Shown here piece after piece: positions 1-8,460 of a stretch of DNA of 10,110 nucleotides. Below the pieces are notes generated by a model. It was not told the origin of the DNA. It did no database searches and saw nothing but the letters and a program-made list of their open reading frames with translations. Source of the DNA: a virus (taxonomy: Duplodnaviria > Heunggongvirae > Uroviricota > Caudoviricetes); IMG/VR virus record IMGVR_UViG_3300010280_000146, one strand, 5' to 3'. A program made the position numbers and the translations under genes. Each line of letters opens with the position of its first letter. Position 1 is the stretch's first letter.

Positions 1-1
1 A

Positions 2-121
2 CATCTGCCGTACGATTTCCTCGGTCGCGTTTCCAACCGCATTATCAATGAAGTGAATGGTATTTCCCGCGTGGTGTATGACATCAGCGGCAAGCCACCA
101 GCGACTATTGAGTGGGAATGA
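2..121 (+). CDS. guaA: GMP synthase, 3' end (partial; 5' part lies upstream of the window)
   Basis: Frame ending at TGA 119-121 translates to [39 protein letters not shown], which I recognise as the conserved C-terminus of enterobacterial GuaA (recalled from memory, not searched). Confidence 0.8.
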
Positions 122-167: not shown

Positions 168-200
168 AACCCTCTGTTTTTACAGAGGGTTTTTGTTTTT
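168..200 (+). terminator. Rho-independent terminator downstream of guaA
   Basis: Stem CCCTCTG (170-176) / CAGAGGG (183-189), 6-nt loop, followed by TTTTTGTTTTT (190-200). Confidence 0.6.
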
Positions 201-249
201 ATGTATTCATTTCTATTCACTCTACACCATATTTTTCGGCGGTACAGGT

Positions 250-285
250 GACGGTATTACCTTAAAGGTATACTCTCATACCGTC
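250..285. promoter_or_regulatory. Inverted repeat GACGGTA...TACCGTC enclosing a TTACC-N5-GGTAT operator-like site (257-271) upstream of int
   Basis: Arms at 250-256 and 279-285 are exact reverse complements; the inner 15-mer TTACCTTAAAGGTAT matches the palindrome found in the other promoter regions at 9 of 10 half-site positions. Confidence 0.35.
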
Positions 286-313
286 ATGAAAATGGTTTCT
301 ATACGGGTGAATT

Positions 314-1564
314 GTGCTTACCGATACAAAATTAAAAAACCTCAAGCCGCAGGACAAACTGTACAAGGTCTCCGATCGTGACGGGCTGTATGTAGCTGTT
401 CTTACGTCAGGCACGGTCTCGTTTCGCTACGACTACCGTATCAACGGTCGCCGCGAAACGCTGGTAATCGGGCAGTATGGGCGTGACGGTATCAGCCTGG
501 CAGAAGCGCGAGAAGAACTGATTGCTGCAAAGAAGTTGCTTAAAGCAGGCCAGTCACCGGCTGCGGCTAAACGTGACGGTATCAAAAAGATTCGTGGTGC
601 TGAGACGTTTGCGGTACATACCGACAGTTATATGAAACACGTCATCCTGGCTGAAAGTACCCGCGCAATGAAGCAGGCAGTGATCGACCGTGACATACTT
701 CCTGTTCTTGGCAACAAAATGATGGCTGAAATTACCACATCGATGGTTCGTGATTTGTGTGACCGGATTGTCGAACGCGGTGGCCGGGCAACAGCAGTGC
801 AGGCCAGGGAGATCATCAGCAGCGTATACCGTCACGCCAATGACCGTGGTCATGGTTTGTTTAATCCTGCAGCTGACATTAAACCTTCGTCTATCGCCAT
901 ATTTAAACCACGAGAGCGAACACTGACACCAGAAGAAATTGGCCTGTTCTTCCGCACGTTGGATGCCATTGGTGCTATGGGCACTATGAAAATGGCTTTA
1001 AAGCTGGTGCTTATCACTATGGTTCGTAAAGGCGAATTCACCAATGCAACGTGGGATGAAATAGATTTTAAAAAATGGACATGGACAATTCCTTCAGACC
1101 GCATGAAGGGAAGCCGGGCGCACGTTATTTACCTGCCTAAACAGGCACAGGATATATTGGTCGGGTTGCAGATGTGCGCTGGTGGAAGTGAATATCTGGT
1201 TCCTGGTCGTTACAATTTCCGGAAGCCATTATCTAATGCCGCGCTGAACTCTCTGATCGACAGAACGGTGAAAATAATAAATGAAGATGGTGAGCATATT
1301 CAGGACTTCACTGTACATGATATGCGCCGTACAGCCAGTACATTGTTGCATGAGGCTGGTTATCCTTCAGACTGGATTGAAAAGGCTCTGGCACATGAGC
1401 AGAAAGGTGTGCGCGCCGTATATAACAAAGCGGAATACGCTAGACAGCGCGCCTACATGTTGCAGCAGTGGGCCGATATGATTGATTCCTGGATTAACGG
1501 GGATCATACGGATCTGATTCCGTTCTCCCCGTCGAAGTTTGAGAAGTGGATGGCGGGGGAATAA
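314..1564 (+). CDS. int: Tyrosine recombinase / phage integrase, P4-type (N-terminal arm-binding DUF4102-like domain plus catalytic domain)
   Basis: 416-aa ORF with GTG start. N-terminus LTDTKLKNLKP...LYVAVLTSGTVSFRYDYRINGRRETLVIGQYG is typical of P4-like integrase arm-binding domains; C-terminal HDMRRT (HxxR box) and VRAVYNKAEY (catalytic Tyr region). Sits next to a host gene 3' end. Confidence 0.9.
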   Translation: MLTDTKLKNLKPQDKLYKVSDRDGLYVAVLTSGTVSFRYDYRINGRRETLVIGQYGRDGISLAEAREELIAAKKLLKAGQSPAAAKRDGIKKIRGAETFAVHTDSYMKHVILAESTRAMKQAVIDRDILPVLGNKMMAEITTSMVRDLCDRIVERGGRATAVQAREIISSVYRHANDRGHGLFNPAADIKPSSIAIFKPRERTLTPEEIGLFFRTLDAIGAMGTMKMALKLVLITMVRKGEFTNATWDEIDFKKWTWTIPSDRMKGSRAHVIYLPKQAQDILVGLQMCAGGSEYLVPGRYNFRKPLSNAALNSLIDRTVKIINEDGEHIQDFTVHDMRRTASTLLHEAGYPSDWIEKALAHEQKGVRAVYNKAEYARQRAYMLQQWADMIDSWINGDHTDLIPFSPSKFEKWMAGE

Positions 1565-2810: not shown

Positions 2811-3059
2811 TCATGCAGCGTTGCTCACGGGACGATATACACGTTGCTGAACAGGAGGTTTTTTACCCTGGAACTCTGCTGGGCTTGCTGCCTGACGTTC
2901 ATCAAGCCAACGTTCAACTTCATCACGGTTCCATGCGCAGCGTTTATCGGTGATATACCAGCGTTTGGGAAATTCCCCTGCGCGCTCCATACGGTCGATA
3001 GTGCTCCATGACAGTGGCACCACCGCCAGGAGTTCCTTCTTACCTAATGCACCTTTCAT
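2811..3059 (-). CDS. AlpA/Xis-like excisionase-family DNA-binding protein (MerR-type HTH)
   Basis: 82 aa; LSWSTIDRMERAGEFPKRWYITDKRCAWNRDEVERWLDE fits the AlpA/excisionase HTH_17 pattern (STIYR...G.FP.P......W...E...WL). RBS AGAGG lies 6 nt upstream of ATG 3059. Confidence 0.75.
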   Translation of the reverse strand: MKGALGKKELLAVVPLSWSTIDRMERAGEFPKRWYITDKRCAWNRDEVERWLDERQAASPAEFQGKKPPVQQRVYRPVSNAA

Positions 3060-3108: not shown

Positions 3109-3990
3109 TTACATAGATGTTTCGTTTAATTCTTCCCGACGAACGCTGTAAACGTCGGTGGCTTTTGCCAGCAGTTCGTCATCATCTGAAAGTTTTTGTG
3201 CAATGTATTTGTAAGCCTTATCCAGTTCGGAGACAGTGCTGTAATTCATCGCTGCGCTGGTAAAGGCCATCAGCATTTCTTCTGGATCACGGCTATCCGC
3301 TTTACGCGTTTGCTCATCAGGCTTTTTCACTGGTTTAGCGTTGATCAGACTGTTCATTCCCGCAGCAGTGGTCGTTTGCGGAGTAATGTCTCGCTCAACG
3401 CGCGGTGCCGTTTCCTGTAATTCGTCTGGGGTGTAAACACCGAGAAGTACATCAGGAGCGTGCAGGCGAGCCCATCGTTTCGTGCAAAGATAGGCAAGTT
3501 GCTGGCGCGGATCCTGTTCCCACAATGGAGAGTTACGCACTCCGGCTTGCGCCATACTGATGGTAAGCTCACGGGGTTCTGCTTCTCCTTTAAGAACTGC
3601 TGACACAGTTACCGTCAGATTCGGTGATTTATCTGTTTTGCCGTTAACATTCGACCAGTCACCGCTCCAGCGATAATTCAGGCGTGTCGCTAGCAGGCTG
3701 GAAGAGGATACGACCGCGTTTACCAACTGTGCTTCGTAGCCTAACGTTCCGTTTACCACATGCGTTTTCTGCGCCACGGCGAAAGGGTTCATTCCCCACT
3801 GTGCCGCCTGCATGGTCACCGCCAGGCAATCGGCAGGTTTGCCTTCAAGATGTTTCGGTACAGTCGCTTTGCTTTGTGACATCAACTCCGCGAAACGCAC
3901 CAGTTGATTCATGCCATCGGGGCTGAAGATTGCCGCAGCAGTGCCCACAGTTGCGCCTGGTTGTGATGTGATTGCGATATCATTGCTCAT
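3109..3990 (-). CDS. Bet/RecT-superfamily single-strand annealing protein (lambda Bet-like recombinase)
   Basis: 293 aa; segments MQAAQWGMNPF, NSPLWEQDP...RWARLHAPDVLLGVYTPDE and ERDITP parallel lambda Bet motifs (QYGLNPW, TGPWQSHP...QCARLAFGFAGIYDKDE, ERDITP) as recalled from memory. ATGA overlap with the upstream exonuclease gene. Confidence 0.85.
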   Translation of the reverse strand: MSNDIAITSQPGATVGTAAAIFSPDGMNQLVRFAELMSQSKATVPKHLEGKPADCLAVTMQAAQWGMNPFAVAQKTHVVNGTLGYEAQLVNAVVSSSSLLATRLNYRWSGDWSNVNGKTDKSPNLTVTVSAVLKGEAEPRELTISMAQAGVRNSPLWEQDPRQQLAYLCTKRWARLHAPDVLLGVYTPDELQETAPRVERDITPQTTTAAGMNSLINAKPVKKPDEQTRKADSRDPEEMLMAFTSAAMNYSTVSELDKAYKYIAQKLSDDDELLAKATDVYSVRREELNETSM

Positions 3991-4808
3991 ACGTACATAT
4001 CCTGTTTACGTGCCCAGTCAGGGCGTTTAATAATTTCCACTCCGCCCCATTCATCGTTGATGCGGCATTCGTGGTAGGTATTCAGATCCCGGCGGAACAG
4101 AGCGTGCCCGGCATCGACATCTGGCGCATCCAGCTCGAACACGCGTACCGGATACCGACCACAATCAATGCTTTCGCTCACGGCAAGAAAGAAAAAACCA
4201 TGCGGCTGACCAGTAACCCTCATTGCGCCTTCGCGGTACATTGCGTCCTGCACGTGGTAGCGGAATTCCTCGATGTGGCGTGCAAAACGGTCCATATCCG
4301 CAACCTTTTTCACGTCGACGATCACGTTGTGCTCGTTCAGCCATTTGTCTGGACGAATTCGGCACAACTCACCCGTTTCTTCATCGTTCCAGTACATTGA
4401 TGCTTCGCAGTAACCAGGTGCTTCCAACATCCAGCGTGCCGCCGGATGAGCCATTGCGCTATCACGCATCAGCTCCAGTTTTCGCCACTGCTCGACATCA
4501 AGTACCGCAATACCCATATCCGTCACATCACGAAGAAATGCTTCTTCGTCAGCTTTACCTTGTTTTGTCCGACGATCGAATTTCGGTGAAACGATGAAGC
4601 GTTTGTCGAATTCTCCAGGTTCCAGAAGCAGGCAGTGCAATGCGGTTCCCATATCCAGTGCAGAATTTTTCTCTTCGTCTTCTGGTGCTGCCTGAATCCA
4701 TTTAAGAAGCGCCGGATTCTTGGCAACCATGTCCAGTTGCGACTTACTCACGCCGTCACCGGCGTGGTAGTCTTCGTTGCTGATGTCGAAATAAATTCCC
4801 GGTTTCAT
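3987..4808 (-). CDS. RecE-like PD-(D/E)XK exonuclease (exodeoxyribonuclease VIII-like; partner of the annealing protein)
   Basis: 273 aa; N-terminal GIYFDISNEDYH and the nuclease core RIRPDKW...VIVDVKKV (D...D/E-x-K) plus YHVQDAMY resemble RecE C-terminal-domain-type nucleases; directly upstream of and coupled to the Bet-like gene. Confidence 0.8.
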   Translation of the reverse strand: MKPGIYFDISNEDYHAGDGVSKSQLDMVAKNPALLKWIQAAPEDEEKNSALDMGTALHCLLLEPGEFDKRFIVSPKFDRRTKQGKADEEAFLRDVTDMGIAVLDVEQWRKLELMRDSAMAHPAARWMLEAPGYCEASMYWNDEETGELCRIRPDKWLNEHNVIVDVKKVADMDRFARHIEEFRYHVQDAMYREGAMRVTGQPHGFFFLAVSESIDCGRYPVRVFELDAPDVDAGHALFRRDLNTYHECRINDEWGGVEIIKRPDWARKQDMYV

Positions 4809-5278: not shown

Positions 5279-5293
5279 TTACCGTTGAGGTAA
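5279..5293. promoter_or_regulatory. Operator-like palindrome TTACC GTTGA GGTAA (leftward early promoter region, site 1)
   Basis: Perfect 5-bp inverted half-sites with a 5-bp spacer; overlaps the putative -10 and start-site region of the leftward promoter. Confidence 0.45.
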
Positions 5294-5340: not shown

Positions 5341-5355
5341 TTACCCGTTAGGTAA
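5341..5355. promoter_or_regulatory. Operator-like palindrome TTACC CGTTA GGTAA (leftward early promoter region, site 2)
   Basis: Perfect inverted half-sites; centre is 62 bp from the centre of site 5279-5293. Confidence 0.45.
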
Positions 5356-5412: not shown

Positions 5413-5997
5413 TTATTGTTTGTTTTTTTCGTTCTGGTTGATGACAAATTCAATGTAACTTTCGATCTTTGCCTTCTCTGTTTCAGGTAACAATGCGTAG
5501 CGCGAGCGGTCATAGTTGATAGTTGCAGGGTCATGCGGATGAATCAGTAGTTCATATCCGTGACGCCCGAATGCAGATGCAACATTCTCCAGGGTGGAAA
5601 TGGAAACGCTGACCTCATTGTTTAACAGGCGGCTTATTGTCACCTGGGCGACGCCGGATGCGCGGTGAAGTTTTCCCTGAGTTGAAAGGTCGCGGCTTTC
5701 ACTCATCCAGCGTTCCAGGTTGTGAGCTGCCAGCTGACCAATGTCGCTTGGGCCGACAGGCTGAAAACCTTCCTGAGAAAGCGAGCGATCGATATCAAGC
5801 CAGTTACGGGGTTTATTGGCGGCAGCTTCAATTTTTCGCGCAACCTGGTCGCCGATAACCTTCTTGCCAAGAGCCCAGCGGTTTACCAGATTTGCCTGAG
5901 TTCCAAGTTTTTCTGCCATCCGCGTCTGAACACCATTGAATTCACGGTCGATCAAGTCGTTGAGATTTTGCCTGCGGACGTCCTGGATACTTTTCAT
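5413..5997 (-). CDS. Tandem helix-turn-helix (two XRE-type HTH domains) transcriptional regulator; candidate prophage repressor
   Basis: 194 aa. First HTH around GVQTRMAEKLGTQANLVNRWALGKKVIGDQVARKIEAA, second around LHRASGVAQVTISRLLNNEVSVSISTLENVASAF. No LexA/S24 peptidase motifs seen. Placed like cI, divergent from a Cro-like gene, with its own terminator. Confidence 0.75.
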   Translation of the reverse strand: MKSIQDVRRQNLNDLIDREFNGVQTRMAEKLGTQANLVNRWALGKKVIGDQVARKIEAAANKPRNWLDIDRSLSQEGFQPVGPSDIGQLAAHNLERWMSESRDLSTQGKLHRASGVAQVTISRLLNNEVSVSISTLENVASAFGRHGYELLIHPHDPATINYDRSRYALLPETEKAKIESYIEFVINQNEKNKQ

Positions 5998-6052: not shown

Positions 6053-6067
6053 TTACCCAACAGGTAA
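6053..6067. promoter_or_regulatory. Operator-like palindrome TTACC CAACA GGTAA (divergent promoter region, site 1)
   Basis: Perfect inverted half-sites between the repressor-candidate start (5997) and the Cro-like start (6152). Confidence 0.45.
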
Positions 6068-6069
6068 AT

Positions 6070-6084
6070 GCACCCCATAGGTAA
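6070..6084. promoter_or_regulatory. Degenerate operator-like site GCACC CCATA GGTAA (divergent promoter region, site 2)
   Basis: Right half-site perfect, left half-site 3 of 5; centre 17 bp from site 1. Confidence 0.3.
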
Positions 6085-6090
6085 CTATCC

Positions 6091-6127
6091 TTGATTTTTG
6101 TTACCTTATGGGTGAATATTTATTATC
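6091..6127 (+). promoter_or_regulatory. Putative pR-like promoter for the Cro-like gene (element assignment ambiguous)
   Basis: Candidate -35 TTGATT (6091-6096) or TTGTTA (6099-6104) with -10 TATTAT (6121-6126, 16-bp spacer from the latter); overlaps operator-like site 3. Confidence 0.3.
6101..6115. promoter_or_regulatory. Operator-like site TTACC TTATG GGTGA (divergent promoter region, site 3)
   Basis: Left half-site perfect, right half-site 4 of 5; overlaps the candidate rightward promoter. Confidence 0.35.
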
Positions 6128-6437: not shown

Positions 6438-6452
6438 GTACCTCAAAGGTAA
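6438..6452. promoter_or_regulatory. Operator-like site GTACC TCAAA GGTAA upstream of the replication operon
   Basis: 9 of 10 half-site positions match TTACC/GGTAA; lies between the cro terminator and the 66-aa gene, followed by a TTGATA -35-like hexamer at 6470-6475. Confidence 0.3.
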
Positions 6453-6532: not shown

Positions 6533-6733
6533 ATGGAAATCATTACACGTATTGATGCCGCAAAGCGCGGACTTAAACGCTACTACACCGGAAAACCATG
6601 TAAGCACGGACATGACAGTGAACGCTGGGTTTACAACGGACACTGTGTTGAGTGCACCATGGAATCAAACCGTCGCATCAGGGCAGAGATTAAGCAGATC
6701 ATGATTAATTCCTCCCCACAACATTCAAGCTGA
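6533..6733 (+). CDS. Small Cys/His-containing (putative zinc-binding) protein at the cII-equivalent position
   Basis: Preferred internal ATG 6533 of track ORF 6470..6733. 66 aa, MEIITRIDAAKRGLKRYYTGKPCKHGHDSERWVYNGHCVECT..., with a C-x-H-x-H ... C-x-x-C arrangement. The track's upstream extension is hydrophobic and lies in promoter DNA. Confidence 0.55.
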   Translation: MEIITRIDAAKRGLKRYYTGKPCKHGHDSERWVYNGHCVECTMESNRRIRAEIKQIMINSSPQHSS

Positions 6734-6748
6734 TAGCGGAGATTAATC

Positions 6749-7564
6749 ATGAGCAGACATGCAACAGATTGGGCCTGGGAGACAGATCCAGGTAGCTCGT
6801 CATTAAAGCTCATACTGCTCTCGATGGCTGACAGAGCCGATGAATATAACCTCTGCTACCCCAGCATAGAACGCCTCGTTAAAGACACTTGTCTGAATAA
6901 AAAAACCGTGCAGGCCGGGCTTATATCGCTCATGAAAATGGGGCTTATTTCAGATACCGGAGAGAGAAAGGGAGCGACAAAAAGAGTGCGGGTTTTCTCT
7001 CTTAATATAACCAAAAACGGGAACATTAAAGGCAACCGGGAGGGGGGCAATGAACCCGAAAACGGTAATGTTACCGAAAACGGGAATATACCCAAAAACG
7101 GGATGTTGAATGATCCCAAAAACGGGATGTTGAATGATCCCAAAAACGGGATCCAGAACCAGTCATATAACCGGTCATTTAACCAAGAGAGGGAGAGCAG
7201 GACAAAAAACGGGGATTCTGTGTCTCATGACCCCGGCGCAAACAACGCCGTGATGAATAACTTTGTTCCTCCTGGTGGGCCAGGGCAATTAGGCAAATTT
7301 GTCATGCATGAACAATGGCAGCCATCAGATGACTTTCTTCGGAAAAGCTCATTGCAGGGAATCTACCTGGATAGTCTGCCAACGGCACAGGAACTTGCAG
7401 AGTTCAGAATTTACTGGATGGCTGAGGGTAAGGCATACCATCAGGCACAGTGGGAGCAGAAGCTGGCAAGGCGGCTGCAGATTAGCAGACAGAAGCAATC
7501 AACATTACCTGATAACAACGTTCCGCACTGGAACAGCCCTGAAGCGTGGGAGGATTTCTTGTGA
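6749..7564 (+). CDS. Replication initiator (O-like): N-terminal winged-HTH domain, Asn/Gly-rich repeat linker, C-terminal DnaT-like domain
   Basis: 271 aa. N-terminus MSRHATDWAWE...LKLILLSMADRADE...SIERLVKDTCLNKKTVQAGLISLMKMGLIS (HTH_36-like). C-terminus WQPSDDFLRKSSLQGIYLDSLPTAQELAEFRIYWMAEGKAYHQAQWEQKLARRLQISRQ closely parallels the E. coli DnaT C-terminal region (WQPDADF...[29 protein letters not shown], recalled). RBS GGAG 8 nt upstream. Confidence 0.85.
   Translation: MSRHATDWAWETDPGSSSLKLILLSMADRADEYNLCYPSIERLVKDTCLNKKTVQAGLISLMKMGLISDTGERKGATKRVRVFSLNITKNGNIKGNREGGNEPENGNVTENGNIPKNGMLNDPKNGMLNDPKNGIQNQSYNRSFNQERESRTKNGDSVSHDPGANNAVMNNFVPPGGPGQLGKFVMHEQWQPSDDFLRKSSLQGIYLDSLPTAQELAEFRIYWMAEGKAYHQAQWEQKLARRLQISRQKQSTLPDNNVPHWNSPEAWEDFL
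7011..7150 (+). repeat. Iteron-like direct repeats inside the O-like gene (candidate origin of replication)
   Basis: Six copies of the core C(C)nAAAACGG(G) at 7011, 7055, 7075, 7091, 7115 and 7139, including two exact 24-bp tandem units CCCAAAAACGGGATGTTGAATGAT (7091-7114, 7115-7138); they encode the repeated NGMLNDPK linker. Confidence 0.6.
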
Positions 7565-8383: not shown

Positions 8384-8398
8384 TTACCTTTTGGGTAA
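8384..8398. promoter_or_regulatory. Operator-like palindrome TTACC TTTTG GGTAA downstream of the P-like gene
   Basis: Perfect inverted half-sites in the AT-rich intergenic region 8347-8463. Confidence 0.4.
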
Positions 8399-8445: not shown

Positions 8446-8460
8446 TTACCTCAGGGGTAA
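8446..8460. promoter_or_regulatory. Operator-like palindrome TTACC TCAGG GGTAA abutting the DUF1064 gene start
   Basis: Perfect inverted half-sites ending 3 nt before ATG 8464 and overlapping the likely RBS; centre 62 bp from site 8384-8398. Confidence 0.4.

Follow-up and report, generated by a model that had tools for sequence, protein, structure and literature searches.

The nested palindromes that precede the integrase gene (int) in this stretch of DNA (10,110 nucleotides, here called the window) lie between a terminator and the int start codon, and they raise the question of which protein, if any, they serve. The original prediction offered two alternatives: an operator of the int promoter, or integrase or excisionase binding sites that belong to the attachment region. 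Positions 241-290 read ggtacaggTGACGGTATTACCttaaaGGTATactctcATACCGTCAtgaa, and the predicted elements are present as described. GACGGTA at 250-256 and TACCGTC at 279-285 form an inverted repeat that encloses TTACC (257-261)-N5-GGTAT (267-271). The outer repeat, first reported as 7 bp, is in fact perfect over 9 bp, with TGACGGTAT at 249-257 and ATACCGTCA at 278-286 being 20 nucleotides apart. Inside TTACC-N5-GGTAT, the sequence TACCTT-A-AAGGTA (258-270) is a perfect 6-bp palindrome. We consider it probable that these palindromes form a composite region on the likely int promoter, in which arm-type sites for the integrase (Int) are placed around a repressor operator, all within the P' arm of the left attachment site (attL) of a uetakevirus. 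Both alternatives appear to be correct, the operator for the inner layer of the palindrome and the attachment-region sites for the outer.

A bare short inverted repeat of this kind is within chance. Inverted repeats of 7 bp whose halves are at most 40 nucleotides apart number 51 in the window, compared with approximately 29 in dinucleotide shuffles, and 9-bp inverted-repeat seeds number nine, compared with approximately 2.1. The significance of the palindromes comes from the recurrence of the motif found in each half.

The window is the attL of a prophage resembling phiV10 and epsilon15 (genus Uetakevirus) that is inserted at the guaA stop codon. Positions 1-121 (plus strand) are the 3' end of the host guaA gene, including the stop codon at 119-121, and positions 1-123 match sequence annotated as guaA in all 5426 of 5426 complete E. 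coli genomes. Homology to empty guaA loci stops at approximately position 123, and only 568 of the 5426 genomes match beyond this point. An occupied locus (L001, strain MCJCHV-1) was compared with an empty locus (L002, strain 2A), and the empty locus diverges directly after ATTGAGTGGGAATGATT. Exactly these 17 bp are shared by attB, attL and attR when L001, L002 and the window are aligned. The identical 17-mer is located at 107-123 of the window, where it forms the attL junction (BOP'), at position 41195 of L001 in attR, at position 1606 of L002 in the empty attB, and in free phage genomes. This att core includes the guaA stop codon, and it is the core of attP reported for phiV10, epsilon15 and ZX5 (PMC9782041).

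In L001, guaA and yfgI are separated by a 40.7-kb podovirus prophage. At the DNA level, the window is 96.8-98% identical to phiv142-3, PAS61, phiV10 and ZX5, all of which belong to Uetakevirus. The attP sequence reconstructed from the left part of attR and the right part of attL is also found in the free phages Tyrion, BUCT711 and epsilon15, and in pHL15EC-2, a circular copy of 41 kb that is on record as a plasmid. The palindrome sequence is absent from uninterrupted guaA loci, and the nested palindrome is phage DNA. Its predicted place in the attachment region holds for the P' arm of attL, where it lies 126-163 bp to the right of the core; it is not the crossover site, and the att core itself is approximately 126 bp to its left.

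The terminator upstream of the palindrome had been taken for that of guaA. A terminator scan finds an intrinsic terminator at 168-195 (plus strand), past the homology break, and the same terminator is present in free phage attP. It is phage-borne and only resembles the native guaA terminator, which sits at attR and attB; upon integration, the phage terminator replaces the native one. Host DNA, with the terminator as the native one of guaA, was rejected as a reading because homology to the empty locus ends near position 123. The true boundary of the element is at the guaA stop codon, and the element takes in the terminator at 168-195. Prophages of the epsilon15/phiV10 type are found in approximately 10% of complete E. 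coli genomes (568/5426).

The GACGGTA repeat that makes up the outer arms differs from the core, is present in several copies on both sides of it, and is absent at empty sites. Matches to TGACGGTAT with at most one mismatch number nine in the window, compared with 1.66 expected, and this count was reached by 0 of 200 shuffles. Five of the copies are exact, and all five lie within 249-834. Exact copies number six in the 49 kb of L001 (0.33 expected), and all are within approximately 720 bp of the att core; the sixth is approximately 80 bp to the left of the core, in attR. Measured from the core, the P arm has copies at -78 and -66, which are present both in attR and in the genomes of free phages. 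The P' arm has copies at +132, +144, +158 and +171 (inverted), and int itself contains copies at +379 and +469, as well as a variable few more. These offsets are identical in three phages (the reconstructed attP, Tyrion and BUCT711).

The four P' arm copies upstream of int (R1 to R4) differ in quality. R2 (TGACGGTAT, 249-257, plus strand) is a putative arm-type site that forms the left arm of the outer palindrome, and is invariant in 11 of 11 relatives. Its homologous 10-mer in epsilon15 (NC_004775.2, 26873-26882) is annotated as a protein_bind feature, 'integrase'. The weak copy R1 (CGGCGGTAC, 237-245, plus strand) is 12 bp upstream of R2 and matches at six of nine positions; its position is occupied by CGACGGTAC in Tyrion, and by TGACGGTAT in BUCT711 and K. 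pneumoniae. R3 (TAAAGGTAT, 263-271, plus strand) is a degenerate copy with seven of nine matches, and reads TTACGGTAT in BUCT711. R4 is an inverted copy of TGACGGTAT (278-286, minus strand) and is the right arm of the outer palindrome. It is less conserved than R2, and its changes are one-sided, although an inverted copy near the same position recurs in distant relatives.

The att region of the window contains no exact match to the IHF consensus WATCAANNNNTTR. The IHF sites of epsilon15 exist only as annotations, and we claim no such site for the window.

The int gene (314-1564, plus strand) encodes a P4-like integrase that matches Pfam families PF13356 (E 3.9e-20), PF22022 and PF00589. The PF13356 domain (Arm-DNA-bind_3) spans Int residues 2-87 and is followed by the central and catalytic P4-like domains. 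The N-terminus also matches the arm-type binding domains in PDB entries 3ju0 and 3jtz (phmmer). Most likely, judging from these matches and from the layout of the repeat, the outer arms are arm-type sites for the N-terminal domain of this integrase. A role in attachment is supported for the outer arms in that the repeat marks both arms of attP and tracks the integrase lineage, as would be expected of sites that Int binds.

This tracking is seen among 47 Int relatives, which were sampled as one genome per species. GACGGTA is kept with integrases down to approximately 47% identity, in gamma-, beta- and alpha-proteobacteria (Enterobacterales, Aeromonadales, Neisseriales, Rhodocyclales, Burkholderiales and Caulobacterales). 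The int genes of relatives with at least approximately 47% identity are nearly all located 200-370 bp downstream of a GAGTGGGA core. Where enough upstream sequence is available, there are mostly one to seven copies of GACGGTA before int, in both orientations, and the DNA around the motifs in these loci is unrelated to that of the window. In a recurring layout, a pair of direct copies at a distance of 12 bp is followed after approximately 40 bp by an inverted copy and, approximately 24 bp beyond that, by another direct copy. The window has a compact version of this layout, with direct copies at 237, 249 and 263 and an inverted copy at 278. Int relatives with less than 40% identity have other repeats, such as CATGGGCACA in L038. 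The N-terminal domain is the best-conserved part of Int among the relatives that share the motif; in L030, for example, it is 76% identical, compared with 43% and 56% for the other parts.

These comparisons indicate that the repeat follows the lineage of the integrase, and not that of the host or the flanking DNA. The consensus derived from 108 distinct instances is T-GACGGTA-W. It is usable as an arm-site consensus for a broad family of integrases that target guaA and are relatives of that of the resistance island GIsul2.

Copies of the motif also occur inside the int coding sequence. In a comparison of 19 int genes with 60-81% DNA identity to that of the window, the longest stretch without any change in the 1.25-kb gene is TGACGGTAT at 484-492 (plus strand), the second longest is ACGGTA at 576-581, and TACCG at 619-623 is joint third. 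The second run lies in another copy of TGACGGTAT (574-582, plus strand), and the third in a degenerate inverted copy, TGTCGGTAT (618-626, minus strand), that is perfect in more distant relatives. The copies at 484-492 and 574-582 correspond to integrase sites in the epsilon15 annotation. The alignment has 92 columns in which the amino acid is invariant and its codons are degenerate, and in four of these the codon is invariant as well (D57 GAC, G58 GGT, G88 GGT and T102 ACC). Those four codons are exactly the ones whose third base falls in a motif copy (hypergeometric P = 3.6e-7). In the codon before D57, the residue varies (R, I, P, A or S), but the third base is always T. Beta- and alpha-proteobacterial relatives that have the residues DGI use other codons there.

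The pattern of synonymous positions indicates that the in-gene copies are under selection at the DNA level. They could provide extra contacts in the intasome, or could act in looping or as a roadblock to transcription of int. If they are functional, the attP or autoregulatory unit would reach approximately 520 bp into int, and the copies are a clean example of putative binding sites kept in a coding sequence by synonymous constraint. One further exact copy, at 826-834 (minus strand), is found only in the window, L003, L010 and L027. It was rejected as a conserved site because of its few carriers and variable synonymous positions, and is probably incidental.

On one strand, the core (107-123), the terminator (168-195) and the int start codon (314) follow one another in that order. 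The int promoter must therefore be located within 196-313, since transcription of int proceeds away from the core and the terminator separates the two. The candidate is a -10-like hexamer, TATACT (269-274, plus strand), whose counterpart is TATAAT in epsilon15 and pHL15EC-2. The best -35-like hexamer is GTGACG (248-253), which lies in the left arm of the outer palindrome, 15 bp upstream of TATACT; this spacing is suboptimal. A strict scan for sigma-70 promoters found none within 100-420. A strong sigma-70 promoter was rejected as a candidate on these grounds, just a -10-like hexamer with a poor -35 element being present. TATACT overlaps both R3 and the operator-like sequence at 257-271.

That operator-like sequence, TTACC-TTAAA-GGTAT, is one mismatch from TTACC-N5-GGTAA, a pattern that recurs throughout the phage. 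The immunity region holds TTACC-CAACA-GGTAA, and its pattern was used for the search. The window has five perfect copies, at 5279, 5341, 6053, 8384 and 8446, and one-mismatch copies at 6101 and 6438 in addition to that at 257-271. L001 has 11 perfect copies, and 16 with at most one mismatch, compared with 0.85 expected. The copies are nearly all intergenic, and some are paired 62 bp apart. Several take up exactly the space that separates a -35-like from a -10-like hexamer, as in TTGATA-a-TTACCTGTTGGGTAA-TAAAAT. The putative operators of the immunity region (6053-6115) comprise a perfect copy at 6053-6067, one with two mismatches at 6070-6084 and one with a single mismatch at 6101-6115. Tyrion, BUCT711 and epsilon15 have the same operator motif at matching places, and each has an off-consensus copy ending in GGTAT before int.

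The product of the gene at 5413-5997 (minus strand) is the candidate prophage repressor. It has an HTH_3 domain (Pfam), and operator copies flank the gene at 5279, 5341, 6053 and 6101. Its homologue in ZX5 has been shown to act as a repressor (PMC9782041). Given this arrangement, the protein presumably binds TTACC-N5-GGTAA. A comparison aimed at co-variation between operator and repressor failed to link the two, in that Tyrion, BUCT711 and epsilon15 share the operator despite diverged repressors; the Tyrion and BUCT711 proteins are 78% and 45% identical to that of the window, and the epsilon15 protein is 42% identical to the ZX5 repressor. On comparative grounds, the proposed operator at the int promoter is supported for the inner TTACC-N5-GGTAT, a near-consensus copy of the phage-wide operator to which the repressor may bind.

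Perhaps, however, only the Int sites work, and TTACC-N5-GGTAT is a by-product of closely packed GGTA cores and a -10 hexamer. The palindrome matches the operator at nine of ten half-site positions, and at 10 of 12 in the extended form (A)TTACC-N5-GGTAA(T). It always has the same mismatch and reaches the perfect consensus in no relative, and the site before int is not labelled as a repressor site in the epsilon15 record. The GGTAT half (267-271) doubles as part of the Int-like copy R3 and of the -10-like hexamer, and with such overlapping roles its conservation could be explained in more than one way. The other half, TTACC (257-261), is unchanged in 11 of 11 relatives even though it is outside T-GACGGTA-W. 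Alignment of the 11 epsilon15-like relatives shows no change in TTACC or GGTATA, whereas the 5-nucleotide spacer between them is free to vary. Wherever sequence is available at this place in an epsilon15-like relative, the palindrome lies at -57 relative to the int start, and its spacers are TTAAA, CTAAA, CTTAA, TGTAA, ATTAC and CCAAA.

Two further observations bear on the same question. A match with at most one mismatch would occur by chance in the approximately 190-bp spacer with a probability near 0.003, and a bona fide one-mismatch copy exists in the immunity region, at 6101. Moreover, the palindrome is absent from relatives outside the epsilon15-like clade that nevertheless keep the Int motif. 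The exception is L016 (Pantoea), in which Int motifs again flank an operator-like sequence, TTACCAGATTGGTAG, but in a different geometry, the arms being oriented the other way round. Taken with the invariance of TTACC, these data make a by-product unlikely, and an off-consensus operator embedded among Int sites is the reading that we prefer.

A different protein might bind the outer arms. The window encodes a candidate excisionase or regulator of the AlpA family (2811-3059, minus strand; Pfam PF05930, PHROG 66), which would be a recombination directionality factor. Conceivably this protein, and not the N-terminal domain of Int, binds TGACGGTAW, setting the direction of recombination and repressing int as do TorI of KplE1 and Vis of P4. 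AlpA homologues accompany Int in most relatives, and the excisionase sites of KplE1 also overlap the int promoter (PMC2951348). However, the repeat is found on the two arms, in either orientation and as far as approximately 520 bp from the core, a distribution that fits arm-type Int sites better than arrays of excisionase sites. Also, in the distant relatives that have kept the motif intact, the AlpA homologues are only approximately 31-48% identical, whereas the N-terminal domain of Int is 54-76% identical and retains an invariant FR[YL]DYR..RRET. The annotators of epsilon15 likewise assigned the copies to the integrase. Binding of the outer arms by AlpA is improbable in our estimation, more so than a by-product origin of the inner palindrome. 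An attempt to separate Int from AlpA by co-occurrence failed, as AlpA is found nearly everywhere with Int.

The palindromes might instead act as a hairpin, either in the RNA of the int leader, for example as an RNase III site, or as a DNA cruciform. Positions 26874-26912 of epsilon15 (NC_004775.2), which correspond to the nested palindrome, are annotated as a putative RNase III site. The DNA does fold (-9.9 kcal/mol, z = -3.5). With 14 base pairs, and these interrupted, the hairpin is short for an RNase III substrate. Among 11 sequences, compensatory changes affect 0 of the 13 pairs; wherever the stem varies, only its right arm has changed. Several relatives, among them Tyrion, pHL15EC-2 and Superficieibacter, no longer have a perfectly symmetrical repeat, the hairpin is missing from distant relatives that retain the motif, and there is no match to Rfam. 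In addition, if TATACT is the -10 element, transcription would start inside the right arm. An RNA or DNA hairpin was therefore rejected as the function of the palindromes, on the lack of covariation, the one-sided changes and the loss in distant relatives, and we regard it as very unlikely. That the palindromes are functionless products of chance is scarcely credible: inverted repeats of 7-9 bp at such spacing are common in the window, but motif enrichment, fixed positions across genera, synonymous constraint and lineage co-variation together appear effectively to refute it.

The composite arrangement of Int sites around a repressor operator suggests how the region might work. Int bound at both the arm sites and the core would link the two into a recombination complex, the intasome. 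The sites used would be 249-257, the inverted copy at 278-286, the weak copies at 237-245 and 263-271, the two P-arm copies, and two or three sites within int (at 484, 574 and 618). The inner palindrome (257-271) would serve as an off-consensus operator for the repressor encoded at 5413-5997. Because both types of site overlap TATACT, Int and the repressor would both hold int expression down in the lysogen. From sequence comparison we infer which protein pairs with which site, where the promoter lies and what the regulatory outcome would be. A more extensive proposal is that int carries functional, long-selected Int sites (484-492, 574-582 and 618-626), that T-GACGGTA-W is lineage-wide, and that the int promoter is also wired to the prophage repressor in epsilon15-like phages; we judge this proposal to be about evenly balanced between right and wrong. 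The region is ordinary temperate-phage machinery, and the understanding of site-specific recombination is unchanged.

A literature search on the motif and on Uetakevirus operators found no experimental work; the search did not cover the primary genome papers of epsilon15 and phiV10. The closest known system is epsilon15 (Uetakevirus), which has homologous DNA, the same core ATTGAGTGGGAATGATT, and integrase marks at the same four positions as in the window. In its record (NC_004775.2, by Kropinski and co-workers), GTGACGGTAT is annotated as a protein_bind feature, 'integrase', at four places (in the P arm, just before int, and at two positions in int), and ATTACC-N5-GGTAAT is annotated as 'repressor' at seven places. 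The inverted copy, the weak copies and the off-consensus operator before int are without annotation in that record, whose features are predictions. The phiV10 record has none of these site features, and the window is closer to phiV10, phiv142-3 and ZX5 than to epsilon15. The present finding is largely anticipated by the existing epsilon15 annotation, and its novelty is low. The additions made here are the conservation of the motif across the family, the synonymous constraint within int, the contrast with GIsul2 and the operator-like inner palindrome.

The attP of phage lambda has the arm-type sites P1, P2 and P'1 to P'3, which are bound by a heterobivalent integrase. As in lambda, a short repeat unrelated to the core is found on both arms in the uetakevirus attachment site, and close direct copies are present on the P' arm. 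In contrast, the lambda int gene is transcribed in the direction of attP and its product does not control it through the arm sites, and the N-terminal domain of lambda Int belongs to a different family. Copies inside the int coding sequence, up to approximately 520 bp from the core, also distinguish the window from lambda.

The intS gene of KplE1 (CPS-53) provides a precedent for the proposed regulation, in that its promoter is located inside attL, an arm-type site overlaps the -10 element, and Int represses its own gene (PMC2951348). In both systems, transcription of a P4-like int gene leads away from the core, and the excisionase gene is not coupled to int (PMC2951348). The two differ in their targets, which are the tRNA gene argW for KplE1 and the guaA 3' end for the element in the window, and in their arm motifs, the P' sites of KplE1 sharing TAAA (PMC2951348). 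The second repressor of intS in KplE1 is the excisionase TorI, whereas a prophage-repressor operator is the candidate here; and autoregulation has been demonstrated in KplE1 (PMC2951348), whereas we infer it for the window.

The resistance island GIsul2 (PMC9376610) uses the same GAGTGGGA target at the guaA 3' end, has an AlpA gene adjoining, and encodes an Int that is 54% identical to that of the window. Its repeat before int is ATGG[CT]AT, in six copies, instead of GACGGTA, and it has no phage repressor operator. The N-terminal domain of its Int reads FRYNYS..RQET, compared with FRYDYR..RRET in the window, with three residues changed.

The palindromic TTACC-N5-GGTAA element, a proposed repressor operator, is not confined to the region upstream of int but is spread phage-wide. 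The prophage has 11 perfect copies, and the related phages Tyrion, BUCT711 and epsilon15 have 9 to 11 apiece. Within the window, copies of the motif lie at 5279-5293, 5341-5355, 6053-6067, 6101-6115, 6438-6452, 8384-8398 and 8446-8460; some copies are paired at a spacing of 62 bp, and several occupy the spacer of promoter-like sequences. This distribution suggests that many phage promoters, some of them in the late region, are under the control of a single regulator.

A phage-borne intrinsic terminator, AACCCTCTGTTTTTACAGAGGGTTTTTG, is located at 168-195 in the window, and its stem is nearly identical to that of the native guaA terminator, AACCCTCTGTTACTACAGAGGGTTTTTT, which is found at ~41237-41264 in the occupied locus of E. 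coli strain MCJCHV-1 and at ~1644-1672 in the empty locus of strain 2A. In the integrated state guaA is ended by the phage terminator, and the native terminator lies downstream of the lysis genes of the phage. Different terminators occupy the same position in more distant relatives.

An intact attP is present in pHL15EC-2 (NZ_CP079771.1; 41,027 bp, circular), a circular copy of a phage of the window type whose database entry describes it as a non-mobilizable plasmid from E. coli. The HL15 chromosome, from the same strain, also has int adjoining guaA, with 87% identity over the junction.

A copy of TACCGTC, one orientation of the proposed arm-type motif, occurs inside the host guaA coding sequence at a fixed distance of 372 bp upstream of the att core in several non-E. 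coli genera (loci L005, L006, L008, L011-L013, L015, L021 and L026); the E. coli guaA sequences examined contain no such copy. It probably reflects ordinary coding conservation. Two further inverted repeats occur in the window: an 11-bp repeat, TCATGATTAAT / ATTAATCATGA (6699-6709 / 6744-6754), directly before the ORF that starts at 6749, and a 9-bp repeat, ACAGCGGGA / TCCCGCTGT (1668-1676 / 1693-1701), within the DUF1382 ORF ~100 bp beyond the int stop. The RecT-family gene at 3109-3990 is 60 bp (20 codons) shorter than its counterpart at 3536-4477 in the MCJCHV-1 locus, whose prophage is 99% similar.

Two integrase relatives carry other repeats upstream of int. For a 38% identical integrase (locus L038, ~1290-1500), the repeat is CATGGGCACA / TGTGCCCAT, which occurs at least five times and is presumably the enzyme's own arm-type motif. 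The GIsul2 integrase (plasmid NC_022371.1) is 54% identical to that of the window and has the same guaA target. Upstream of its gene (L055 8670-9000), GACGGTA is absent and ATGG[CT]AT occurs six times, with copies in both orientations; the strands of its N-domain bear three substitutions. Together, the changes in repeat and N-domain have the appearance of a natural specificity swap.

In Pantoea sp. R13S299 (L016), a perfect TTACCCAGCAGGTAA lies immediately downstream of int. At ~1400-1500, an operator-like TTACCAGATTGGTAG is positioned at -43 from int, between one inverted and one direct copy of GACGGTA; the arms of this nested palindrome are in the reverse orientation to those of the window's (249-286).
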